Origin: Candidatus Micrarchaeota archaeon
GTDB lineage: Archaea > Micrarchaeota > Micrarchaeia > Norongarragalinales > SBBD01
DNA: 12,407 nt
Direction of reading: 5' to 3'
NCBI GenBank assembly: GCA_043813365.1
Contig: JBDRLB010000006.1
Location: 1-12,407 of the forward strand
Shown: piece by piece, positions 1 through 12,362 of the stretch
Position numbering within the stretch: the stretch's first letter is position 1
Layout: every line of letters starts with the position of its first letter
Made by a program: the position numbers and the translations under genes
The notes under the pieces: generated by a model
Database searches by the model: none
Seen by the model: only the letters and a program-made list of their open reading frames with translations
What the model was told of the DNA's origin: nothing

Positions 1-1
1 A

Positions 2-352
2 TACAGGAAAATCACCCAAAAGAGATTCGGAAAATCATATGCGCTTCTAATAGGGGATGCTGCTGGGCAAGTGAAGGCAACCAGCGGAGGCGGGGTGAAT
101 TTCGGGGCGAAGTGCGCCAAAATTGCTGCCAAGGAGGCGGAAAAGTACCTTTTCGAGGATGTGCCCCCTGAGTACGAGCATCAATGGCGCAAATCCCACG
201 GCGAAACCCTTAAATTGCACTACCTGCTTCATCGCGCATATATGCTGGTGCCGCATTGGCTTTCAGAAATCGGAGTAGGCGTCTCCCGCAGGGTCGGAAT
301 GGCCAGTTTACTGGAGAAATATGGCGACATGGATTATGTATTTAAGATGTAA
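2..352 (+). CDS. Geranylgeranyl reductase-family FAD-dependent oxidoreductase, C-terminal part (5' truncated by window edge)
   Basis: The frame is open from position 2 (YRKITQKRFGKSYALLIGDAAGQVKATSGGGVNFG...). LLIGDAAGQVKxTSGGG matches the second FAD-binding motif (GDAAGxVxPxxGGGI) of GGR/DGGGPL reductases. The track's GTG start at 71 is internal. Ends with TAA at 350-352. Confidence 0.85.
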   Translation, partial: YRKITQKRFGKSYALLIGDAAGQVKATSGGGVNFGAKCAKIAAKEAEKYLFEDVPPEYEHQWRKSHGETLKLHYLLHRAYMLVPHWLSEIGVGVSRRVGMASLLEKYGDMDYVFKM

Positions 353-375
353 GTTGTAATAATTGCGGGTATATT

Positions 376-1962
376 ATGAGCCAGAAAATCATTATGCGGC
401 CGCCTGAACTGCCTGAGGAAAAAGAAAGGCAGGAGGAGATCAAGAAAGCTGCATTGTTTTACGGTGAAAGAAAGGCATCCCATTATATTGAAGTAATGAA
501 GCTTGCAATGCAGTATGCAAACGACTGGCACCTCGCCCAAGCTGCTTTATATCATGGCGTCCCATTTTTCCTTAGGAAAAAGGTTTTGCAGGAAGGAAAA
601 GAGCTGAAGAACGAACAAATCAAAGCGGCTTTGACGTCCTTTGGTTTGAAGGGGCCAGTCAGAGACTTGATATTAACGTATGATAAGCTGCCGCGACCAA
701 AGCCGAAGGAGGGCAGGCTTTCTTCTTCTGAAGAAATAAAAGGGCTAAGCACGGTAAAACCTCTTTCGTCCGAACCAAAGGAAATTTCAGAGCTGGACCC
801 CGAATTTCTCTCAAAATTCTACTATCGAGTCGAAGAAGACCCGCGGCTTTACCTTTTACGCACACTGGACCGATTGCATGTTTTAAAATCCAACAAGTAC
901 CCTCGCGAATCATTGGGAATTGCCAGGGCTGTGAGGGAACACTATGCAAAGACTGCGCATTGGCTGAACATGTACGGCCTTGCGAGTGAACTTGAAAGTG
1001 CCGCGTTCAGGACCGAGCATCCATGGATCGCCAAACAGGTCGGATTGCTCATCAAGAAAAAGAAGGAATCAGTTAATATTAAAAACAGGAGAGCTTCCCT
1101 GATGCGCATCGCGAAAAGCTTAAGTTTTTCTTCAAAGGAACCGGTCCAAATCGAGTATAGGATAAAATCCGATGCCAGTGCCTGGAAAAAGATGAAAATC
1201 GATCCTGGTGAATTTGAAAAAATGAATTACAGGGAAAGAAAACGCATGCTAAATAGGCAATTTAAAACCGTCCGAGATGTTATTGCATTCAGGTTAATTG
1301 TGCCCGATGGGTATACTGACGGAAAACCGAACCACGAATTATTAAAAAATGCACTCCTTTCCTCAGATTTGGGATTGAAAGTATCAGCAGATTATTTCCT
1401 CAAGCCCAAGCCAAACCATTACCAGGCGTACCATCTGAAAGCTGAGGATATTGACCTCCAAATACGTACATATGGGAGCCACCAGCATGCGGAATACGGG
1501 GACGCTGGCCACTGGGGATACAAAGGCCACCCGATTTCAGGGTCGCTTGCAGTCCAGTTTGCCAATATTCGCAGTTATTATGATGCTGTGAATAAAGGCG
1601 ACTTGACAGCCAAAAAGTCAACTTTCGAAAGATGGCACGGTGTGGATTTGATGGAAGAAGGGATGATATACCGCGGCAACGAACTTTTTTCTTTCAAGCA
1701 TGTCGGCCCACCGACACCAATAGACCTCGCCCGCACTTCGGATCCTCACCAGTGGATATACCTTAAAACCTGCCTTGTCAAGCCACCTGGATCAAAATCA
1801 TGGAAAAATTTTGCTTTTTCCAAGCGAATACCATTCGGTTCAGAAACAAGGCTATTCTTTGCACCTAGGCAAACGTTAAATTCAAATTGGCTGGGATATG
1901 TTGCAAATGAAACTACGAAGGCAACAATAAGGCTTTTATTGAGGGACGCCGATTCAAAATGA
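376..1962 (+). CDS. Divergent RelA/SpoT homologue (RSH): degenerate HD domain + (p)ppGpp-synthetase-like domain + TGS-like domain, 528 aa
   Basis: Collinear RSH motifs: AALYHGV (cf. AALLHDV), LLRTLDRLH (cf. LIKLADRLHN), YAKTAHWLNMYGLASELESAAFR (cf. YAPLAHRLG...ELEDLSFR), RIKSDASAWKKM (RxKxxxSxxxKM), DVIAFRLIV, DYFLKPKPNHYQAYH (cf. DYIAxPKxNGYQSLH), DLQIRT...HAEYGDAGHWGYK (cf. EIQIRT...AEYGVAAHWxYK), TPIDLA (TGS start, cf. TPIDFA), NWLGYVANETTKATIR (cf. DWLNFVKTSKAKNKIR). Confidence 0.9.
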   Translation: MSQKIIMRPPELPEEKERQEEIKKAALFYGERKASHYIEVMKLAMQYANDWHLAQAALYHGVPFFLRKKVLQEGKELKNEQIKAALTSFGLKGPVRDLILTYDKLPRPKPKEGRLSSSEEIKGLSTVKPLSSEPKEISELDPEFLSKFYYRVEEDPRLYLLRTLDRLHVLKSNKYPRESLGIARAVREHYAKTAHWLNMYGLASELESAAFRTEHPWIAKQVGLLIKKKKESVNIKNRRASLMRIAKSLSFSSKEPVQIEYRIKSDASAWKKMKIDPGEFEKMNYRERKRMLNRQFKTVRDVIAFRLIVPDGYTDGKPNHELLKNALLSSDLGLKVSADYFLKPKPNHYQAYHLKAEDIDLQIRTYGSHQHAEYGDAGHWGYKGHPISGSLAVQFANIRSYYDAVNKGDLTAKKSTFERWHGVDLMEEGMIYRGNELFSFKHVGPPTPIDLARTSDPHQWIYLKTCLVKPPGSKSWKNFAFSKRIPFGSETRLFFAPRQTLNSNWLGYVANETTKATIRLLLRDADSK

Positions 1963-1979
1963 ACAAATAGGGATGCCCG

Positions 1980-4688
1980 ATGTTATCAAAGGATTATCTC
2001 ATAAAGGAATTCGAGAAGGAGTACAAGCAGTACTACGAGGTGGAGCTTTTCAGGAAGGAGGGGTTCCGGAGGTTCAAGTGCAAAACCTGCGGCAAGGCGT
2101 TCTGGAGCATACCAGAAACCGATAACTGCGGCGACTCCTCCCATAATGATTACGATTTCTTCAATGACCCGAAGCCAGTTTCCTCCCACCTCAACTATTC
2201 CCAATTCTGGAAGAAATACGCCTCCTTCTGGAAAAAAAACGGCCACGAGGTTCTGAAGCGTTATCCGGTGATCTGCAGGTGGAGGGATGACCTATTTTTC
2301 ACAATTGCAAGCATCGTTGATTTCCAGCGGCTTGAGAAGGGGAAAGTGGTTTTCGAATACCCCTCGAACCCATTGATGGTCCCCCAAATCTGCCTCCGAT
2401 TTGTTGACATTGCGAATGTGGGTGTTACCGGAAGGCATTTCAGCTGCTTCATGATGGCAGGCCAGCATTCATTTAATGAGAAGAAGGGCAAAGCGGAAGG
2501 GAACGCAAATTTGCAACCCAATTCATCGCCAGCTAAAAATGATCCTTATTGGAAGGACAGGTGCATAGAGCTCAATTTCAAATTCCTAACCGAGGTGCTC
2601 AAAATACCAAAAGGAAAAATCACCTATGGGGAGGATCTGTGGCACATGCCGGATTTCTCCGCATTCGGGCCTTCAATTGAGAGCTTTTCGGGCGGTGTTG
2701 AGCTGGTCAACAGCGTTTTCATGCAATACCGCGCTACTCCGGATGGGAAATTCGAGGAGCTTGACACCAAAGTGATTGATGTGGGTTGGGGATTCGAGCG
2801 GCTCCTTTGGTTCTACAACCGTACACCAACCGCATATGATTCCGTCTTCCCAACTGAAATAGAGTTCATGAAAAAAAGGAGCGGGCTGAATATCGATGCA
2901 AAATTATTCGCATCCTATTCACAGCTCGCTGCCAAGCTGAACATAGAGGAAGTGCACAACTTGAAGGAGGAAAAGGATAAAATTGCGAAGAGTTTGGGGA
3001 TAGGGCTGGAAGAGCTTGAAAGGACCATTGCCCCATTGCAGGCGATTTACGCGATTGCGGACCACTCCAGAACATTGCTGTTCGCGCTGAGTGACGGTGC
3101 ACTGCCTTCAAATTCCGCGGGCGGGTACAATTTGCGGATCCTCCTTCGCCGCGCGTTCGGCTTCATTGACGAGTACAAATTCGATTTTGATGTTTATGAC
3201 ATAATGAAATTGCAGGCAACGGGTTACAAGGGCATATTCCCCGAACTTTCGGAAAATTTTGATGGGATAAGGAAAATTTTGGAAATAGAGCGGGGGAAAT
3301 ACGCGGAGACGAAGGAAAAGGCGATGAAGCTCGCTTCGGAAGTTCTTAGAAAGGGCGAACTGAAGGCGGACAAATTACAGATGCTTTACGAATCCCACGG
3401 CGTTACCCCGGAAATACTTGACAGTGTTGCAAAAGCGCTGAAGATAGAGGCAAGCATCCCGACCGATTTCTACCGCAAGGTCACTGAGAAGCACATTATG
3501 CAGGAGAAGGCGAAAAAGGATCCCCTCCTAGATGACCCGAAATTTCAAAAACTGCAAAAAACACGGCTGGTTTACTACGAAGACCAAAATAAGCTGGAAG
3601 ATACTGCAAAAGTGCTGGCGATTTACGGCAATAAGATTGTGCTGGACCGCACCATCATCTACCCTGAAGGCGGAGGGCAGGTTGCAGATTACGGGTTTAT
3701 CGGGAAAGCTAAAGTGCTGGACGCCCAGAAAATCGACGATGTTGTTCTGCATCACGTGGAGCATCCTCATGAGCTGAAGGAAGGCGAAACGTATGATGTC
3801 AAGGTTGATTACGTGAGGCGCTGGGCCTTGAGGCGACATCATTCAGCAACGCATATCATGAACGCCTCTTGCAAGGAAATACTGGGCAACCATGTCTGGC
3901 AGGCTGGCGCAAAGAAGGAGGATGATGAGGCGCACCTCGACATTACGCATTATGAGAAGCCGACTGCAGAGTAGCTGCGGAAAATCGAGCACATTGCAAA
4001 CAAGCACGTGATGGCGAACCTGAAGGTGAAAATCAATTTTATGGACAGGGGGAAGGCGGAGAAGAAATACGGCTTTCGTTTGTACCAAGGAGGGGGCGCC
4101 ATTGGGAACATCATCCGCGTTGTTGACTATTCGGGAGTGGACGTGGAGGCATGTGGAGGCATGCATTGCGATTACACCTCCCAAGTTGGCATCATAAAAA
4201 TTGTCGGCTGCGAGCAGGTGCAGGATGGGATTGTCCGGATCCGGTACAAGGCGGGGGAACAGGCCTGGAAGTGGATACATATGCGGGAAGAATTGCTCAA
4301 GCACGCGTCAAGTGAACTGAATGTGCAGGAGGAACAGCTTCCGAACACGGTGAAGCGCTTCTTTGACGAGTGGAAAAGCAGGGGGAAGCAGCTTGAGAAG
4401 GCGCATGAGAACCTTGCGGAAGCAACTATTCATAAATTGACGAGGGAGGCAAAGGAGCAGAATAAGCATCTTGTTAAAATGGAGCTCAACTTGATGCCTC
4501 CGCTGCTGGAAAAGGTGGCTCTGGAGTTCTCGAAGCATGAGGGTTATGCGATTCTGCTCTGGAACCCCGATGGTTTTGTAGTAGCTGCTGCAAACAAGGA
4601 TAGCAAGGAGGATGCGCTTGCGCTGCTTAAAGAGAAGGGCGCAAAGGGCGGTGGCAATAGGAATTTTGCTAGGGGGAAGATGGTTTAG
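1980..4688 (+). CDS. alaS: Alanine--tRNA ligase, archaeal type, interrupted by one in-frame TAG at 3972-3974 (902 aa if read through)
   Basis: N-terminal CKTCGKAFW...CGD Zn-ribbon; RWRDDLFFTIASIVDFQ, PQICLRFVDIANVGVTGRH, IDVGWGFERL, YAIADHSRTL, GGYNLRILLRR, LDRTIIYPEGGGQ; editing motifs HSATH (3840-3854) and CGGMH (4152-4166); C-terminal GGGNRNFARG. ORFs 1980..3974 and 4008..4688 are in the same frame, joined by TAG plus 11 sense codons (LRKIEHIANKH). Confidence 0.95.
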
Positions 4689-4942
4689 TACAGCTGTTCC
4701 TTTTTCCTTAAATCTTCATTTTTTTTGACGTTTGCATTCAATGTTGAATCCGCCCTATTTTTCCTTTCCAACAGGGATTTCTCAATATTCATTCTCGTTT
4801 GTGCAGTATCGACCACGGCCGTACCAACCTTCTTGGTGGCTGGGTCATTCGGCGGGTTGACCCTATTTTGATCGGGATGCCTGAGGTGGAATGGGATCAA
4901 TATGGCAGCAGCTAAAACCGCAGCGAATTTTTTCCATCCCAT
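4685..4942 (-). CDS. Small hypothetical protein (85 aa) with signal-peptide/anchor-like N-terminus and charged helical C-terminus
   Basis: ATG at 4942 gives MGWKKFAAVLAAAILIP (basic, then hydrophobic). The track's longer start (5017) overlaps the upstream gene and translates a T-tract. Its TAA overlaps the alaS TAG (TTAG, 4685-4688). Confidence 0.55.
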   Translation of the reverse strand: MGWKKFAAVLAAAILIPFHLRHPDQNRVNPPNDPATKKVGTAVVDTAQTRMNIEKSLLERKNRADSTLNANVKKNEDLRKKEQLY

Positions 4943-4951
4943 AAAATCAGC

Positions 4952-4980
4952 AATAAAAAATAAAAGGAAAAAATAAAAAA
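4952..4980 (-). terminator. Oligo-T tract, probable archaeal intrinsic terminator
   Basis: The minus strand reads TTTTTTATTTTTTCCTTTTATTTTTTATT (24 of 29 nt are T) directly after the TGA of the 4981..5397 gene. Confidence 0.55.
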
Positions 4981-5397
4981 TCAGAGGCCGGCAGGTGCGA
5001 ATGTAAGCATCAGCCATGCGCCTATTATGTACTTGAAGATCCCTCCGACCATGTCTCCCAGAAGGAACCTTTCAGGCAGGTTCATCGAAAGCGCCAACCC
5101 GACTCTTACCGGTATTTGCGCAATGATGCCCAGGAGCGCGAAGAATATATAGTACGTTGAGAAGTCTAAATTCATTCCCGCATACACGATGATGAACATC
5201 ATGAACACGAAGAACGCTTCCACGAACGAATTCAGCACAGAGAGCATCATTACCCGGGAGCTTTCCCTTTTCACGAGCTTTTCGAAGCCCTTCTTTCTGC
5301 CCCATTTTTCCAGCATCGTGCCCGTCCCGAGCCAGCTGAATATAGCGAACCAGATGCCTAACACTACCCACGGTATCAAGAATTCCGGCGAACCCAT
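4981..5397 (-). CDS. Small multi-pass membrane protein (138 aa), DUF1761-like
   Basis: About 4 hydrophobic segments; W..KxxG loop after TM1 and PERFLLGD before the last TM resemble DUF1761. SD-like AGGTGG a few nt upstream of the ATG, with its own BRE/TATA. Confidence 0.75.
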   Translation of the reverse strand: MGSPEFLIPWVVLGIWFAIFSWLGTGTMLEKWGRKKGFEKLVKRESSRVMMLSVLNSFVEAFFVFMMFIIVYAGMNLDFSTYYIFFALLGIIAQIPVRVGLALSMNLPERFLLGDMVGGIFKYIIGAWLMLTFAPAGL

Positions 5398-5510: not shown

Positions 5511-5546
5511 GATTAATTGCTCATTCTTCCAAAGTGGCATCTTTTC

Positions 5547-8500
5547 ATGGATAGCGAATACTCCAAGCTGATTGACAACCTTGCGGACCCTAATTTCAAG
5601 CAGAAGGTTTCCATCCCAAAAGTGCTTGATGTTCTCCGTGACCAGCTCACTGATGTCTCAAAAACCAACCGTTCATTGCATCTGTCGCGCCTCAATATGC
5701 GCCTCCATTTCGACCTTTCCGAACTGTTCAATGAGAACAAGGAGGAGGCGCAAAGGCTCGCGAATAAAATTGAAAACAGGAGACCGTTACGGCTCGTAAA
5801 AGTGATCACTCCGGATGAGGACGACATGGCCGCTTCTTACCGCCTCACCCATTTGCAACGCGAAGCGGATTTCATAGAGAAGGAAACCGGCAATTACGAT
5901 GTTTACATAGGCTATCCTTTCGTGGAGGGAGAATTCGGCGACGGCACCCATTACAAATGCCCCCTGGTATTATTCCCCGCGATCATCGAAAAGGATTACA
6001 AAAAGCTCGAATATACCGCAAAGCCGGATGCGGAACGCGAGCCCATCCTCAATAAAACTTTTATCATCGCATACCAGAAGTTCAACCGCATAAAGTTTGA
6101 CCCGAATTACGATTTTGAAATAGAGGAAGGGAAGGACGGATTCCTTAAAGCTGCAATATCGAAATGCGAGGATCTTGGAATGAAATTTGAGAACAAAACT
6201 GTTCTCGGTAACCATATGCAGCAATACGATGCGAGGAAGGCTACACGGGGAGGGGCGACGAACAGGATAAACATCAAGAATTATGCGATCCTCGGCATGT
6301 TCCCCCAGACTTCCTCCACTGTCCTGTCGGATTATGAGGAGCTCATAAAAGCGCCCCCATCGGATGGCGCAATGTTCGATTTCTTCAACGGCGAGGCTGC
6401 AGATAAAAACGAATGGCTTAGGCCCGAGGACCACGGGAAGAGGGCGTATTTCGTCACGGATGTTGATGGCTCGCAGGAGAAGGCGATGCTTTCCCTGGAG
6501 AAGCTGAAGGGGATTGCCGTGCATGGGCCGCCAGGGACCGGCAAATCGCAATTGATCGTCAATGTGATTGCGGATAATGTGGCAAAGGGGAAGGCCATCC
6601 TGCTTGTTTGTGAAAAACGTGCCGCCTTGGACGTAGTCTACCACCGGCTGGCAGCAATCGGCCTAGGCGACATGGTCGCGTTGGTGCATGATTACAACAA
6701 GGACCGGCACACGATTTTTTCCAAAGTCGCAAAGAACATCGACGATTTCAATAATGCCGAAACGCTTCCTGAAATCACCGTTGATGACAAGGGCATGAAA
6801 TCCGAAGAGCTGCTCTCCCAGCTTGTGGAATACCACCATTCAATAAGCAGGAAACTAAGGAGCGGGACGAGCCTAAGGCACCTGTATTCCGTTGACAAGC
6901 AGCCACTTTTGCGCGTTGAAAGCCTATCCGGATTGGAAAACAGCTTTTCCTTCCTCCAGTTCGTGGATGCGATGGAGAAAATCTCCGACCTGCTGCTTCT
7001 TGTCAGGAAGGACGGGAACGGCGCATTCAAGGCTCTCCAAAATAACAAGCTGGCATCGATTTCCGAGGAAAAAAGCCGGCAGGTGGAGATCCGTTTAAGG
7101 GAGCTGCTCAGGATTTACGAGTCCCTCATCGAGCTTTCAAATGGGGCTGAATTCCAGGCATTGCAGCTGCAAAAGCACCATTCCGCTTACCCCAAATCAA
7201 TGGAGCTCGAGTCCCGGATCAGGAAGCACCCCCACAATTCCAAATCCTTCCTGAAATTCACCAATTCCGAATGGCGCAAAGCGCAGAAGTACCTTGAAGC
7301 CGTGCGTGAAAACAATAGGGAAAGCAAGCTGCCCTTTGAATACCTGCTTAGGGAATTGAACGGCGAAAGCATCAAATTCACCTCGAAAACGTTCATTTCA
7401 GTAGGGAAGCTGGCGGAATACAACAAGCTGATGCAATCCTTTGAGAACGAGGCTGCCGAGCTGCAGAGCGAGCTTGCATATGGGGAATCGGACAACACAA
7501 TTTCCTCCGAACTTGTCTCCCTTGCCTCGTTTTGCTCGGACGATTGCCAGCACCTTCTACTCCAATTGCAGAATTCCTTAAAGGCAAGGGAAAAGGGGAA
7601 GGTATTTGCGCGCCAGGTATCCGACCTTTCAGAGGAAGAGCGCACCCTCTTCGATATTGCGCAATCGGTGCTTTCGCGCGAGAAGAACCTGCAGAAAACG
7701 ATCGACATCCTAAACCACTCCTATTACTACAAGCAGATACAGCAGGCGGAAAACGAGCTTCCGGTGCTGAAGAAGCTTGACCGCACTACTTACGGGAATT
7801 ACCGGAAGGAACTGCAGTCACTGCTGAACAAGCGCAAATTGAAAAGCAGGCAGGAAGTCAGGAGGAGATGGCATGAGAACCTCTCCAACCAAAGGTACTC
7901 CAACCTGAAGGAAATGAAGTTCCAGGCGGAAAAGACGAAGCACCCGTGGAGCATCAGGAAAATGATGCGCGAGTTTGCAGACAAGGGGATTATGGATGTT
8001 TTCCCGGTGTGGCTTTGCTCGCCTGAAACCGTCTCCGCCATTTTCCCGCTCAAGAAAGGGATGTTCGAAACGGTTGTTTTCGACGAGGCTTCCCAATGCA
8101 CGCTTGAACATGCAATCCCTGCGCTCTACCGTTCCAAATCCGTTGCAGTTGCAGGCGATGAGAAGCAGCTCCCTCCTTTTGATTTATTCTCCTCCCATCT
8201 GGACATTGAGAATGCCGAGGAGGACGATTCGCCTTCAGCAAACGAATTGGTGGAGGTTGCCGGCGTCAAATCGTTCTTGCAGCTGGCAAAAAGGAGATAT
8301 CCCGAACTCCTCCTTAACTGGCACTATCGCTCAAAACGTGAGGAATTGATCGCCTTCTCCAATTTCGCCTTCTACTCCGGCAAAATTCAGACAACCACTC
8401 CTCCTGAAATGCACAAAAAAGGAACTGCAATTGAATGGATAAAGGTTAATGGTTTATGGGACAAGAGGAGGAACCGTGCGGAGGCAGAAAAGGCAGTCGA

Positions 8501-9359
8501 ACTCATCGCATCAATAATTTCAAAGCCCCATCCGCCTTCAATCGGAGTAGTCACTTTCAATTCCGCCCAGCGCGACCTTATTGAAAATTTGCTTGAGAAA
8601 AAAGCGCTCTCGGATTACAAATTTTACCAGCACTACAAGCGCGAACAGGAGCGCGTTGAGAATGAGGAGCTCCAGTCCCTTTTCGTGAAGAACATCGAGA
8701 ATGTGCAGGGGGATGAAAGGGACATGATAATTTTCAGCATTGGGTATGCTCCATCTGTTGAGGATGGAAGGGTGCTCACTCAATTCGGCACACTCAGCAT
8801 GGAAGGCGGGGAAAACCGGCTGAATGTCGCGATTACCCGCGCCCGGGAAAAAGTGATTGTGGTCAGCTCCATTGATCCCCTGCAGCTCAAAATAACCGAC
8901 GAAAGCAACATCGGCGGAAAATACCTCCGGAAATACCTCGAATATGCCAAGGCAGTCTCAGACAACAATGGGGATGAAATTTCCGCAATACTGAAAAGCG
9001 TTGGCGGGGATGCATATGAAAAATCAATGCTCTCCCAGCCATCGGCTTCGGATGCGCTTTCGGATGAGCTCTTCATTCAGCTCCAGAAAGCCGGCCTTGA
9101 AGTCAAGAAGGAGGTGGGCTACAGCAACTACGCGCTTGATCTCGCAATAATTGACAAATCCGACCAGCACCGGTTCGCTCTAGGAATCGAAATCGACAAG
9201 CACAATTATGGCGGGCTGCTCGATGCAAAGGAAAGGGATGTCTACCGCCAGAACCTGCTGGAGAGCAGGGGCTGGAAGCTTTTCCGCGTGAGCTCAAGGG
9301 ATTGGTGGAGCGATCCGGAGGAGATTGTAAGGGCAATAAAGCAGGAGTTAAAGGACTGA
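5547..9359 (+). CDS. DUF4011-like + UPF1-like SF1 helicase (AAA_11/AAA_12) + C-terminal Vsr-like/MTES_1575-type endonuclease fusion (Hhe-like putative defence protein), 1270 aa
   Basis: N-terminal LTDVSKTNRSL...EKETGNYDVYIGYPF...CPLVLFP (DUF4011-like); Walker A GPPGTGKS (6525-6548); VCEKRAALDVV; CSPETVS; Walker B FDEASQ (DEASQ at 8082-8096); GDEKQLPP; HYRS; VQGDERD; RLNVAITRAR; C-terminal YALDLAI...GIEID...ERDVYRQNLLESRGWKLFRVSSRDW. Confidence 0.9.
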   Translation: MDSEYSKLIDNLADPNFKQKVSIPKVLDVLRDQLTDVSKTNRSLHLSRLNMRLHFDLSELFNENKEEAQRLANKIENRRPLRLVKVITPDEDDMAASYRLTHLQREADFIEKETGNYDVYIGYPFVEGEFGDGTHYKCPLVLFPAIIEKDYKKLEYTAKPDAEREPILNKTFIIAYQKFNRIKFDPNYDFEIEEGKDGFLKAAISKCEDLGMKFENKTVLGNHMQQYDARKATRGGATNRINIKNYAILGMFPQTSSTVLSDYEELIKAPPSDGAMFDFFNGEAADKNEWLRPEDHGKRAYFVTDVDGSQEKAMLSLEKLKGIAVHGPPGTGKSQLIVNVIADNVAKGKAILLVCEKRAALDVVYHRLAAIGLGDMVALVHDYNKDRHTIFSKVAKNIDDFNNAETLPEITVDDKGMKSEELLSQLVEYHHSISRKLRSGTSLRHLYSVDKQPLLRVESLSGLENSFSFLQFVDAMEKISDLLLLVRKDGNGAFKALQNNKLASISEEKSRQVEIRLRELLRIYESLIELSNGAEFQALQLQKHHSAYPKSMELESRIRKHPHNSKSFLKFTNSEWRKAQKYLEAVRENNRESKLPFEYLLRELNGESIKFTSKTFISVGKLAEYNKLMQSFENEAAELQSELAYGESDNTISSELVSLASFCSDDCQHLLLQLQNSLKAREKGKVFARQVSDLSEEERTLFDIAQSVLSREKNLQKTIDILNHSYYYKQIQQAENELPVLKKLDRTTYGNYRKELQSLLNKRKLKSRQEVRRRWHENLSNQRYSNLKEMKFQAEKTKHPWSIRKMMREFADKGIMDVFPVWLCSPETVSAIFPLKKGMFETVVFDEASQCTLEHAIPALYRSKSVAVAGDEKQLPPFDLFSSHLDIENAEEDDSPSANELVEVAGVKSFLQLAKRRYPELLLNWHYRSKREELIAFSNFAFYSGKIQTTTPPEMHKKGTAIEWIKVNGLWDKRRNRAEAEKAVELIASIISKPHPPSIGVVTFNSAQRDLIENLLEKKALSDYKFYQHYKREQERVENEELQSLFVKNIENVQGDERDMIIFSIGYAPSVEDGRVLTQFGTLSMEGGENRLNVAITRAREKVIVVSSIDPLQLKITDESNIGGKYLRKYLEYAKAVSDNNGDEISAILKSVGGDAYEKSMLSQPSASDALSDELFIQLQKAGLEVKKEVGYSNYALDLAIIDKSDQHRFALGIEIDKHNYGGLLDAKERDVYRQNLLESRGWKLFRVSSRDWWSDPEEIVRAIKQELKD

Positions 9360-9777: not shown

Positions 9778-11037
9778 TTATTCGTATCTTAATGCTTCAA
9801 CCGGCTGCAGTTTGGCTGCATTCCTTGCCGGCAATACCCCGGAAATTATTCCCACAAGCGCGGAGAATAAAATCGCACCCACAAGAAGTTCGGTAGTCAC
9901 CAGCGTAGCAACCCCAAATGTCCCGAGGACATAATTTGCAGTCAGGCTAAGTGCAATTCCAAGGACGCCGCCCAAGAAGCCGATCAGCCCCGCTTCAATC
10001 AGGAATTCTGCAGTGATTTCGCGGTCCTTCATCCCCAATGCCTTGAGCACCCCGATTTCGCGCGTCCTTTCCAGAACGCTCATGAACATGGTGTTAGCGA
10101 CACCTATAGCCCCCACAATGAGGGAAATGGCCGCTATTCCGCCCAGGAACAGGGTGAGCATTCCCGTAATGCTTGAGGAGGCATCCGCCAAAAACGAGGC
10201 GGTCGTTATTGTGAAGTCCTCCTTTCCTGCAGTGAGCCTGTGGGCGATAAGCAGTGCCTCATCCAGCTTTGCCGCAACAGCATCGGTGCTGTAACCGGGC
10301 TTGACTTTCACAAAAACCTGCCCCACATTCGTGCTTTCATTGAGAAGCTGCTTTGCCACGGTCATTGGGATGTAGACATTATTGTCAGATGACACGAACG
10401 ACCCCGATGTCTGGTTAATTGCACCTACAACCCGGAAATACGAATCGCCAATTTTAATCTGCTTATTGAGGATGTCCATGTCCTTGAATGTATTTGAATA
10501 TACCCTGTAACCCAAAACAACCGAGTACCGGTCGTTGTCATTAAGCGTTTTTCCTGCAATCATGGTGGGGTTAGCAATAGCCTTGAAAGCTGACGGATCT
10601 ATTCCCACCACTTGAAGGGATGCATTGAATCCCTTGAACTCTGTCCTTTCGCGGCCATCGATGCGGCCATCGACCTCCAATACGCCATCCACCCGCCTGA
10701 GTTTTGCCAGATCATCGAACGTGATCCTCCCGCTATCGCCGCCGAATCTGAAGCCTCCGGCTGCACCACCTCCGCCTGAAATCCGTATTTCGCCTCCTCC
10801 CCCAAAACCGCCCCCTCCGGTCCTTGTTGCTTGCTGCCCTCCGGGAGTAATTTGGATGATGTCATTCCCGAGCAGGTTAAGGCGCGAGCGCACTTGCGCA
10901 TCAACGCCAAATGCAAGCGCCAGCAAAGTGACTATGGAGGCAACTGCAATCACGATTCCAAGCACGGTCAGCCATGAACGGAGCTTCCTGCCGCGCATAT
11001 TCGCAACCGATAGCCCGAACACATCAATTAGGTTCAT
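9778..11037 (-). CDS. ABC transporter permease, MacB/FtsX family (419 aa)
   Basis: RKLRSWLTVLGIVIAVASI (TM1), a large extracytoplasmic domain, and the C-terminal signature IAAISLIVGAIGVANTMFMSVLERTREIGVLKALG...PARNAAKLQPVEALRYE. ATG at 11037 is preceded by SD GAGGAG, so it is preferred over TTG 11052. Confidence 0.95.
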   Translation of the reverse strand: MNLIDVFGLSVANMRGRKLRSWLTVLGIVIAVASIVTLLALAFGVDAQVRSRLNLLGNDIIQITPGGQQATRTGGGGFGGGGEIRISGGGGAAGGFRFGGDSGRITFDDLAKLRRVDGVLEVDGRIDGRERTEFKGFNASLQVVGIDPSAFKAIANPTMIAGKTLNDNDRYSVVLGYRVYSNTFKDMDILNKQIKIGDSYFRVVGAINQTSGSFVSSDNNVYIPMTVAKQLLNESTNVGQVFVKVKPGYSTDAVAAKLDEALLIAHRLTAGKEDFTITTASFLADASSSITGMLTLFLGGIAAISLIVGAIGVANTMFMSVLERTREIGVLKALGMKDREITAEFLIEAGLIGFLGGVLGIALSLTANYVLGTFGVATLVTTELLVGAILFSALVGIISGVLPARNAAKLQPVEALRYE

Positions 11038-11096
11038 ATCTTCTCTCCTCAAATATGCGATTATCCTGAATTTTATTTGCGTTCCTCCCGACAGCC

Positions 11097-12362
11097 CTAT
11101 TTATCATGCCTCTTTTTCCATTTGTACCCTACGTATGCTCCAATCAGGATGATCACGCCAACCAAAACCATGAATGGGTCCAGCCCGAAAATGCTGAACC
11201 CTTGCGAAGCTGGACGGCCGAATCTCTGGTTTGTTGTACCGGTTGCACCAGTAGAGTCTGCGAAGGAAGGCCTGATGCTTAGATCCAGACCAGTGGTTTC
11301 CACATGCTCAATGTTTAGTGCGTCCTTGTATGTCACGGTAATTTTCAGGATGCCCGAACTCGCATTTACGCCCCTCCTTGGAGTCATGCTTACTGACATC
11401 GATGCTGAATCGTCCAGATTAAGGGTGCCGATGAACTTGTCGTTGCCACTCGTAATGACAAAGTCGTCCGAGGATGCTTTGCCATATACTCCCCTTACGG
11501 CCGTATCGCCGACATTTGCTATTGTCACGGAAATGGAGCTGGTCCCGGCAGTATCAGTCATGGGTGCCGCGCCTTCAGTACTGACTAACAAAGAGGTTTT
11601 GGCAAGCACCTGCAAACCGGCTGTTTGTGTAATTGCAGGTTGATTTTCATGGTCGATATTGTAGTTTATGACCAAAGTTATGGGGTAAAAGCCCGGCGAT
11701 GTTCCTGCTGCTACACCTACTTTAAAACTGATCTTTTCCTTTTCGCCTGCTCCGATGGATGCAACATATTGCCTGTCCGTTCCCAATGGGATTAGGGAGC
11801 TGGTGGTGGCAAATTGCATCTGGATGAAAATATCCTCTGCGGTCTGCCTCCCCACATTGGTAAGCGTCACCTCCAGGTCTTTTGAATCGCCCGCATAGGT
11901 ATTTCCAGTTCCCGTCAATTCAGCGACGAGCAGGTTCGATTGCTGCAATTGGTTTATTGTAATTGGTATGTCCCCGACCTGCGCTTGTGTGCCTTTTTGG
12001 TCAATGATGAAAATATAGATATCGTAATTCCCGGGCTTGGCCCTGTCCGGAACCTGGAAATCCACGATCTGGTTTTTAACCTGCTTGTAGACCATGTCCC
12101 CGTAATAATAGGTCTGGGGAGCATCCAAAAAAGGAATCAATATGTTCAATTGCACCGAATTCGAGCCTTCAGCGTTGGTATTTTCCAGGTCGAATTTAAA
12201 TCTCACGCTGTCGCCGGGGAATATCCTGTCCGGCGTCTGCTCAAGGTTTGATATTTTGTATCCGGTATTTGAGAAATAGCCCGCATTAGTGATATTGAAA
12301 GTCACGGCTGCAGCTTGGCCGATAAGCAATAAAAAAATTGCCCAAAGTAACGACTCGTCCAT
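11097..12362 (-). CDS. COG1361-type S-layer-domain (Ig-like repeat) surface protein with signal peptide and C-terminal TM anchor (421 aa)
   Basis: N-terminal signal peptide; three beta-sandwich repeats (FDLENT...PGNYDI; VTLTNVG...PGFYPITLVINY; VTIANVGD...ITVTYKD); TM segment plus KWKKR tail; typical position upstream of an archaeal MacB-type permease; GGAG upstream of the ATG. Confidence 0.85.
   Translation of the reverse strand: MDESLLWAIFLLLIGQAAAVTFNITNAGYFSNTGYKISNLEQTPDRIFPGDSVRFKFDLENTNAEGSNSVQLNILIPFLDAPQTYYYGDMVYKQVKNQIVDFQVPDRAKPGNYDIYIFIIDQKGTQAQVGDIPITINQLQQSNLLVAELTGTGNTYAGDSKDLEVTLTNVGRQTAEDIFIQMQFATTSSLIPLGTDRQYVASIGAGEKEKISFKVGVAAGTSPGFYPITLVINYNIDHENQPAITQTAGLQVLAKTSLLVSTEGAAPMTDTAGTSSISVTIANVGDTAVRGVYGKASSDDFVITSGNDKFIGTLNLDDSASMSVSMTPRRGVNASSGILKITVTYKDALNIEHVETTGLDLSIRPSFADSTGATGTTNQRFGRPASQGFSIFGLDPFMVLVGVIILIGAYVGYKWKKRHDK

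Follow-up and report, generated by a model that had tools for sequence, protein, structure and literature searches.

The RSH Locus

The DNA analysed here is a stretch of 12,407 nucleotides (the window), which makes up the whole of contig C6 of genome G000 (1.34 Mb in 78 contigs, 88.6% complete), a Candidatus Micrarchaeota archaeon of the tiny, symbiotic-type DPANN group. We focus on a gene at positions 376..1962 of the forward strand, which runs from an ATG start to a TGA stop and encodes a RelA/SpoT homologue (RSH) of 528 amino acids. This open reading frame (ORF) is an RSH of the long type in its domain order, shortened after the TGS domain; sequence profiles and a fold model give its architecture as [h]-SYNTH-TGS plus the first helix of the helical domain, where SYNTH is the synthetase domain and the lower-case h a degenerate hydrolase domain. 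Upstream lies the 3' part of a geranylgeranyl reductase gene (2..352, +), cut by the contig end and recognized by TIGR02023 (E = 1.6e-9) and TIGR02032 (E = 4.6e-8). Downstream is alaS, an archaeal-type alanyl-tRNA synthetase (AlaRS) gene (1980..4688, +), whose frame is broken by one TAG; TIGR03683 matches it with an E-value of 3e-196 over 1980-3974 and of 2.5e-53 over 4008-4688. Read from the sequence, the RSH gene is separated from its neighbours by only 23 nucleotides on the 5' side (353..375, +; A/T-rich immediately 5' of the ATG) and 17 nucleotides preceding alaS (1963..1979, +). Both gap lengths had been given in a first-pass annotation of the window and are exact, since the upstream stop ends at 352 and the downstream start is at 1980. 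The same annotation took the flanking genes to be archaeal, which is borne out by the profile matches of the reductase C-terminus and of the archaeal-type AlaRS.

Domain Architecture

The central part of the protein carries the family signature. Pfam RelA_SpoT (PF04607) matches residues 262-384 (E = 1.2e-12; 48.5 bits against a cut-off of 27), and it also matches 10/10 sequences of A1, our 10-sequence family alignment, whose members are 19-29% identical to the window RSH. TIGR00691 (spoT_relA) extends over residues 127-524, aligned to positions 78-451 of the 687 in the model (E = 3.3e-24). When solved structures are searched with phmmer, residues 36-385 are collinear with residues 23-349 of Bacillus subtilis Rel (E = 9.8e-16), and other Rel catalytic fragments are matched likewise. 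Pfam HD_4 and TGS find no match in the window RSH at E ≤ 0.1, nor does ACT_4; among the A1 members, HD_4 is called in 5/10 and TGS in 0/10. The profile search that had been proposed as a check is therefore divided in its outcome: RelA_SpoT is found above its cut-off, while HD_4 and TGS are not called by Pfam in the window protein.

We built a fold model with AlphaFold on A1 (mean pLDDT 79). In Foldseek, full-length B. subtilis Rel ranks first (6yxa, E = 5.2e-14). With VIA-align, model residues 4-370 superpose on the N-terminal domain (NTD) of T. thermophilus Rel (6s2u) with a Z-score of 23.0 and a root-mean-square deviation (rmsd) of 3.4 over 301 residues. The HD-fold domain (residues ~13-215; 412..1020, +), delimited by VIA-align and by the motif table described below, matches the small alarmone hydrolase 7qod (Z 13.1) and Mesh1 (5vxa, Z 11.5) over residues 13-215. 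It contains an insertion (residues ~104-140; 685..795, +), which is largely of low confidence (pLDDT < 50 at 112-132) and largely specific to the window orthologue, as it corresponds to a gap in the other nine A1 sequences. Residues ~215-460 match small alarmone synthetases with Z-scores of 12-13 (SAS1, 5ded, Z 12.9). The synthetase (nucleotide pyrophosphokinase) domain itself is placed at 1021..1530 (+) by PF04607, the invariant columns of A1, the motif table and VIA-align, and is followed by a low-confidence linker with helices (residues 386-424; 1531..1647, +; pLDDT < 50 at 378-389 and 409-428).

Next comes a beta-grasp TGS domain (residues 425-497; 1648..1866, +). Model residues 427-497 match the isolated TGS domain 3hvz (Z 8.0, rmsd 1.8, 63/64 residues), and residues 425-528 match residues 391-488 of the ribosome-bound Rel 6htq (Z 11.7, rmsd 2.5, 95 residues). 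Because Pfam is blind to TGS in the window RSH and in the A1 members, we also compared profiles with each other. In hhalign, a C-terminal profile of nine family members aligns with the post-synthetase profile of 35 ordinary long RSHs at a probability of 97.9% (E = 3.9e-13, 104 columns), and the alignment spans TGS as well as the conserved helix with which the helical domain begins. This helix (W-L-G-Y-V...T-K-A-T-I in the window RSH, conserved in the pattern W-L..V....A..I at residues 503-518) forms the start of the helical domain at 1867..1959 (+), which is aligned to 6htq up to residue 488 of the latter, and then the protein ends. Its last residue, 528, corresponds to about residue 488 of B. 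subtilis Rel, and the next gene begins 17 nucleotides on. Most of the helical domain and the whole of the zinc-finger (CC) and ACT/RRM domains are missing.

A small alarmone synthetase has a single SYNTH domain with neither HD nor TGS, whereas the window RSH has three folded domains. As in long RSHs, an HD-fold domain lies upstream of SYNTH and TGS lies after it; the C-terminal helical, zinc-finger and ACT domains are absent, and the protein stays below the TIGR00691 cut-off. The collinear series of HD-like, synthetase and TGS-like domains and helical start, originally read from motifs, is thus confirmed by PF04607, the collinear Rel matches, the AlphaFold model and the TGS profile match. It had also been called a full series; this description is right for the order of the domains and wrong in two respects, as the hydrolase site is degenerate and the chain stops shortly after TGS.

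Active-Site Residues

The roles of individual residues in the hydrolase and synthetase sites are known from RelSeq and RelA, and we compared these positions in a motif table of 24 rows from the divergent clade (see the tree below), aligned with seven canonical sequences. In the hydrolase site of the window RSH, H36, H60 (the His of the HD dyad) and D165 (the Asp of D-R-L-H-N) are kept. However, the dyad reads H60-G61, the ED pair is gone, and the Asn is changed to Val. The HD dyad is present in only 1/24 clade rows and the ED pair in 0/24. The set of residues that marks the hydrolase of bifunctional Rel/SpoT enzymes, denoted [HS] (H, HD, ED, D..N), is incomplete in the window RSH, and on these residues the N-terminal HD-fold is a predicted pseudo-hydrolase domain.

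The synthetase site is far better preserved. The window RSH has R262-x-K264-xxx-S268, D301-xxxx-R306, P-K345...Y349-Q...H353, D360-L-Q-I-R-T (with Asp for the usual Glu) and A-E373-Y-G...H-W-G-Y-K383. Ten columns are invariant in A1: K264, S268, D301, R306, Y349, Q362, R364, E373, G375 and K383. Across the 24 clade rows, the Lys of RxK is found in 24/24, the Asp and Arg of DxxxxR in 24/24 and 21/24, and the Glu of ExQIRT in 19/24. The five replacements of this Glu are Asp360 in the window RSH, Asn in genomes G001 and G008, Ser in G009, and Asp in one member of family f11.

Distribution and Divergence

HMMER, run exhaustively over 1.84 billion representative proteins, gives 1639 matches at E ≤ 0.001 and only two at E ≤ 1e-30, namely a 174 amino acid piece of the same protein from another assembly and P0125 (508 amino acids, 32% identity). 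They are followed by P0126 (30%) and P0127 (29%), and then by ordinary long RSHs with at most 36% local identity. The heavy divergence that had been noticed by eye is therefore real, the best relative among the 1.84 billion representatives being 32% identical. A word-indexed homologue search returned 271 matches among 8000 scored candidates, mostly Streptomyces Rel at 25-30% identity, and missed the family.

The apparent distribution depends on the query. With the window protein as a single query, a match is found in 7/40 related genomes. With the family profile, matches are found in 26/67 genomes of the order (11/21 of those of high quality), including 7/9 genomes in the window's own family, f1, and 7/12 in family f9. 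In the class as a whole, 90/300 sampled genomes have a match (a tally that includes one weak match, G296), or 44/168 of the high-quality ones. Family f13 stands out with matches in 8/9 genomes, and three of its proteins, of approximately 650 amino acids, are readily recognized by Pfam (HD_4, E-42 to E-44; RelA_SpoT, E-38; TGS, E-15 to E-17; ACT_4, E-10 to E-11). For eight further members from the window's order, Pfam calls RelA_SpoT in seven, HD_4 in three and TGS in one, the last just under the cut-off.

In NCBI, the homologues from the same genus, family and order come from sources named Candidatus Micrarchaeota or Micrarchaeia archaeon, which upholds the initial assignment of a multidomain RSH to an archaeal genome. 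The annotated products vary between “hypothetical protein” or “HD domain-containing protein” and “bifunctional (p)ppGpp synthetase/hydrolase.” The last of these is carried by a homologue of the same genus, so the suggestion of a possibly undescribed system has to be toned down.

Synteny, Inheritance and Phylogeny

The arrangement of reductase, RSH and alaS is not peculiar to the window. The three genes adjoin in G001, G002, G003, G005, G007, G008 and G009, i.e., in 7/7 of the other f1 genomes with a match, and the reductase orthologues at the same place in these relatives are full-length. Between these genomes, AlaRS is 66-78% identical and the reductase 47-70%, while the RSH is 22-25% identical; the RSH therefore evolves far faster than its neighbours. 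G003 (contig C69, L028/L036) has the reductase and alaS on either side as usual, but its RSH frame runs on the other strand, suggesting that this one gene was inverted where it stood; the RSH of this genome also has one of the longest branches in the tree. In family f9 (L006, L007 and L008), the RSH gene is not beside alaS and lies tail-to-tail with a gene for a P-loop protein of approximately 200 amino acids (G-T-x-x-S-G-K-G), at 3/3 loci.

The reading frames have been kept open during this divergence. The matched ORFs of the order are 424-620 codons long, and 29/30 distinct ones have no internal stop, the exception being G061 with one TAA. Calculation of dN/dS for five orthologue pairs shows that synonymous sites are saturated; dS is not computable in 4/5 pairs, and the fifth (dS 2.9, ratio 0.13) gives no usable estimate. 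Open frames despite saturated synonymous sites would point to selection for an open frame.

Our tree (73 rows, 482 columns) was computed under LG+G4 by a short search, a setting prone to long-branch artefacts. In this tree, 21 sequences of the order and three unnamed short ones stand apart from 46 ordinary RSHs and three f13 proteins (SH-aLRT 98), and within this divergent clade the sequences group roughly by genus and family. Flags are raised for six long terminal branches and for four places where long branches join, and, given the simple model, the topology is to be read with care. An approximately unbiased (AU) test does not reject a grouping of all 27 Micrarchaeia-type rows (p-AU 0.93), and the constrained tree is 59 log-likelihood units above the quick free tree. 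These results are compatible with, and fall short of showing, a single origin in the class, with f13 near the ancestral state and the window's order as a truncated and accelerated derivative. Taken together with the conserved synteny, the rough agreement of the clade with genus and family favours the long residence that the first-pass annotation had assumed. The RSH would have been passed down vertically within this archaeal order for a long time, apparently evolving several-fold faster than its neighbours.

A Candidate Separate Hydrolase

Besides the window RSH, there is no RelA_SpoT match in genome G000. The genome does encode a stand-alone HD_4 protein of 342 amino acids on contig C64 (L046:1213-2241, +; Pfam E = 2.7e-7). 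Among solved structures it is closest to the small alarmone hydrolase 7qoe (E = 1.9e-7); the two align over the signature H...L-L-H-D-S-x-E, and the H...HD..E residues of the C64 protein are intact. With this protein as query, a match is found in 13/67 genomes of the order, including 5/5 other genomes of the genus. Ten of the 13 HD_4-positive genomes are among the 26 RSH-positive ones, although genomes so related do not count as independent cases. Two more HD_4-like matches, both partial, are on contigs C75 and C51.

Function of the Shortened RSH

From the observed family membership, domain order, motif states, synteny and distribution, we are inclined, with slightly better than even confidence, to regard the window RSH as a derived Micrarchaeota long RSH that has lost hydrolase activity and everything after TGS, and that would act as a monofunctional alarmone synthetase of the (p)ppGpp type. 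As for catalysis and product, it would be a nucleotide 3'-pyrophosphokinase that transfers pyrophosphate from ATP to GDP or GTP to give (p)ppGpp. The pseudo-HD domain would then do no more than assist the synthetase structurally or allosterically, as it does in Escherichia coli RelA. Zinc-finger and ACT/RRM domains are the parts that anchor a long RSH on the ribosome; as they are absent here, activation cannot follow the route of the bacterial ribosome-bound RelA. TGS may thus be the sole remaining regulatory input, sensing the 3' end of uncharged tRNA or some other ligand, and regulation could proceed through TGS and the pseudo-HD domain instead of the ribosome. Breakdown of the product would be left to a separate enzyme, for which the HD_4 protein of contig C64 is the candidate.

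One may be tempted to go further and picture a ribosome-free archaeal alarmone circuit, in which a hydrolase-dead, TGS-only RSH co-transcribed with alaS would work together with a separate hydrolase-like enzyme, and in which the fast turnover of the RSH would be an adaptation (e.g., to host or virus interference) and not decay. We consider this extended scheme distinctly unlikely. If true, Archaea would have their first demonstrated stringent-type response, and RSH activation would take a route that is not known from bacteria.

Several observations weigh against an active synthetase of this kind. The catalytic Glu of the synthetase, which is essential in RelSeq, is replaced in 4/8 f1 genomes with the gene (the window, G001, G008 and G009). 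In RelA, the His of the TGS motif I-H-x-x-x-G matters for recognizing tRNA; the window RSH has Asp456 in its place, although P0125, P0126, G001 and G005 have the His. The TIGR00691 score, 85.2 bits, is far under the cut-off of 499.2. The RSH is not found in G004 and G006 (2/9 other genomes of the family, each approximately 90% complete), nor is it beside alaS there. The proposed partner is also imperfectly matched with it, as G004 has the HD_4 protein without an RSH, while G007, G008 and G009 have the RSH and no match with the HD_4 query. Finally, a 99-100% identical copy of the RSH on a 3.5-kb contig of another assembly (P0124, P0274) is called in two pieces, one covering residues 180-350 with a changed four-residue tail and the other residues 426-528. 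In that assembly the frame must then be broken near codon 350, within a synthetase motif, whether through faulty assembly or because the allele itself is broken.

With Asp standing for both Glu and His in the window protein, the Glu missing from half of the f1 orthologues, two f1 genomes lacking the gene and a copy in pieces, there is room for a pseudoenzyme or a decaying gene. Here the RSH fold would be kept while catalysis is lost or being lost, so that the protein would serve as a scaffold (e.g., a TGS-mediated binder of tRNA or protein, encoded beside alaS) or evolve under relaxed selection. The much lower identity of the RSH than of AlaRS and reductase, and the disordered insertion in the HD-like domain that is specific to the window protein, fit this explanation as well. 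It has more difficulty with the ten invariant columns, which include ATP- and acceptor-binding residues and persist across 10 sequences that are only 19-29% identical, and with the near-universal absence of internal stops in the order despite saturated synonymous divergence. Moreover, an Asp at the position of the Glu could still bind metal. We judge a pseudoenzyme to be unlikely on this evidence, though an explanation to be taken seriously.

A second alternative keeps the pyrophosphokinase active and changes its acceptor. The enzyme could make (pp)pApp, or it could pyrophosphorylate the 3' CCA end of tRNA, as is done by the toxic small synthetases CapRel and FaRel2. In the latter case TGS would deliver the tRNA, and the linkage to alaS would reflect a tRNA-centred role. 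It is in keeping with this idea that TGS is retained while the ribosome-binding domains are lost, that the alaS linkage is tight in family f1, and that the synthetase core aligns to CapRel (Z 10.8), Tas1 (Z 9.5) and FaRel2 (Z 8.2). In addition, the clade does not conserve the four residues preceding D-Y-I-x-x-P-K, a stretch at which Rel and RelA differ. However, the guanosine-specific enzymes score higher (Rel NTD, Z 23; small alarmone synthetases, Z 12-13). The P-K...Y-Q...H block, which holds the guanine acceptor in Rel, is kept, with Y349 invariant. The alaS linkage, moreover, is restricted to f1, the f9 members adjoining the P-loop protein instead. Another acceptor thus appears very unlikely to us.

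That a bacterial RSH was mis-joined to archaeal genes by chimeric assembly or contamination is vanishingly improbable: although the long-RSH family is mainly bacterial, GC content is slightly lower over the RSH ORF (0.44-0.45 versus 0.47-0.52 elsewhere in the window) and neither junction is bridged by public contigs, the reductase-RSH-alaS block recurs in seven other f1 genomes, which in itself contradicts a mis-joined bacterial fragment, no ordinary RSH is closer than 36% local identity, and the window RSH groups with sequences of its own order. The first-pass annotation had named a chimeric contig among the findings that would overturn it, and this recurring block speaks to the contrary. The public contigs themselves (Logan contigs on window positions 1-4700, from four DNA runs, 151-402 nucleotides long at depth 2-4, and all identical to the window) are uninformative either way, as they leave 352-376, 1962-1980 and the TAG at 3972 unspanned and 3455-3925 uncovered. 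No RNA run is listed as carrying the stretch.

Other Features of the Window

The in-frame TAG in alaS lies at 3972-3974 (codon 665), and the frame stays open to 4688. This interrupted gene is the sole full AlaRS gene in genome G000, while the AlaRS relatives in G006 and G004 have Gln or Glu at this position and unbroken frames of 907 and 968 codons. The TAG may have arisen by mis-sequencing; it may be genuine, as a nonsense allele or a split gene restarting at the GTG at 4008; or it may be read through.

Between alaS and a helicase gene, two overlapping ORFs of 110 and 138 amino acids (4685-5397, -) have no Pfam match. The helicase (5517-9359, +) is a superfamily-1 protein of 1280 amino acids (AAA_11/AAA_12) with a C-terminal restriction-endonuclease-like domain of the MTES_1575/DUF559 type (E = 2e-22). 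Toward the end of the window, at 9778-11052 (-) and 11097-12362 (-), an ABC permease of the MacB/FtsX type (MacB_PCD, E = 5.7e-29; FtsX, E = 2.4e-21) adjoins a 421 amino acid protein with surface-type domains (CARDB / NPCBM-associated). No tRNA genes or Rfam families are found within the window.

Novelty and Significance

The first-pass annotation started from the notion that RSHs in archaea are small and sporadic at best. This is the view of a 2011 survey, in which, as far as its accessible text goes, only small RSHs are recorded in a few archaea, and the PVC bacteria, eukaryotes and archaea are listed as being without long RSHs (PMC3153485). It has been superseded by a 2021 comparison of DPANN genomes, whose accessible part gives RelA/SpoT frequencies of 69.0% in Diapherotrites, 41.7% in Woesearchaeota, 21.3% in Pacearchaeota and 19.0% in Nanoarchaeota and predicts a bacterial origin of these genes; Micrarchaeota is outside the four listed phyla (PMC8407392). 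The published RSH subfamilies numbered 30 in 2011, and in 2020 they comprised 13 long RSHs, 30 small alarmone synthetases (SAS) and 11 small alarmone hydrolases (SAH). The 2020 update of the classification contains no archaeal terms in its main text or in the available text of its supplement, which is possibly incomplete. Literature searches combining Micrarchaeota with ppGpp, DPANN with stringent response or RelA, and long RSHs with archaea found no description of the present clade. Since RelA/SpoT genes of DPANN archaea are already in print, the novelty lies in the details and not in the existence of the gene. The window RSH belongs to a known enzyme family, of which it is a highly derived form, and the lineage was already broadly known to have that family; it is not a categorical surprise.

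What the details offer is one order of Micrarchaeota with a TGS-only RSH, probably vertically inherited and predicted to be hydrolase-dead, and a sister family in the same class with a canonical RSH. The window genome and the five other genomes of its genus encode a separate candidate hydrolase too, a pairing that is not strict elsewhere in the order. These are concrete proteins for testing archaeal alarmone synthesis. They also provide a graded set of natural variants, some full-length and some truncated, some with Glu and others with Asp, Asn or Ser, in which to ask what an RSH does once freed from the ribosome.

Comparison with Known Systems

The bifunctional Rel of Bacillota and Deinococcota (6yxa, 8acu, 6htq; 6s2u) is the best sequence and fold match of the window RSH (phmmer E = 9.8e-16; Foldseek E = 5.2e-14; VIA-align Z 22-23) at 18-24% identity. 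The two have in common the order HD-SYNTH-TGS-helical start and the synthetase motifs. In contrast to Rel, the window RSH has an HG dyad and no ED pair, and ends approximately 30 residues after TGS.

E. coli RelA, a long RSH of the [hS] type (5iqr, 5kpv), appears to be alike in principle, with a dead hydrolase domain beside a live synthetase and TGS downstream. It matches the model with VIA-align Z-scores of 21.0 and 18.9 over residues 10-527 and 5-528. However, phmmer aligns it only over residues 339-389 (E = 9e-7), the window RSH is without the domains that hold RelA on the ribosome, and we judge that the two are probably not orthologues. Because the divergent clade stands apart from the ordinary RSHs (46 in the tree, with no named RelA among them), hydrolase loss in this clade is taken to be independent of that in RelA.

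Within the same archaeal class, the long RSHs of f13 (L039-L041, approximately 650 amino acids) are collinear with the window RSH over HD, SYNTH and TGS at approximately 25% identity. Unlike it, they have strong HD_4, TGS and ACT_4 matches and an HD dyad, and fall among the ordinary RSHs in the quick free tree. In these three proteins the ED pair that follows the kept HD dyad reads R-D, so the hydrolase of f13 may also be altered. The RelA/SpoT genes of the DPANN comparison (PMC8407392) come from the same superphylum and share the family annotation; in the accessible part of that paper they are known from automatic annotation, and neither their domain make-up nor their motifs are analysed there.

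The closest likeness in length is to three short metagenomic RSHs of HD-SYN-TGS order, P0136, P0138 and P0171 (483-511 amino acids), which carry the source names “bifunctional (p)ppGpp synthetase/hydrolase” and “GTP diphosphokinase.” They have the same end after TGS as the window RSH, but differ from it in keeping the hydrolase motifs H-P, L-L-H-[DN] and D-R-[LV]-H-N and a canonical TGS sequence.

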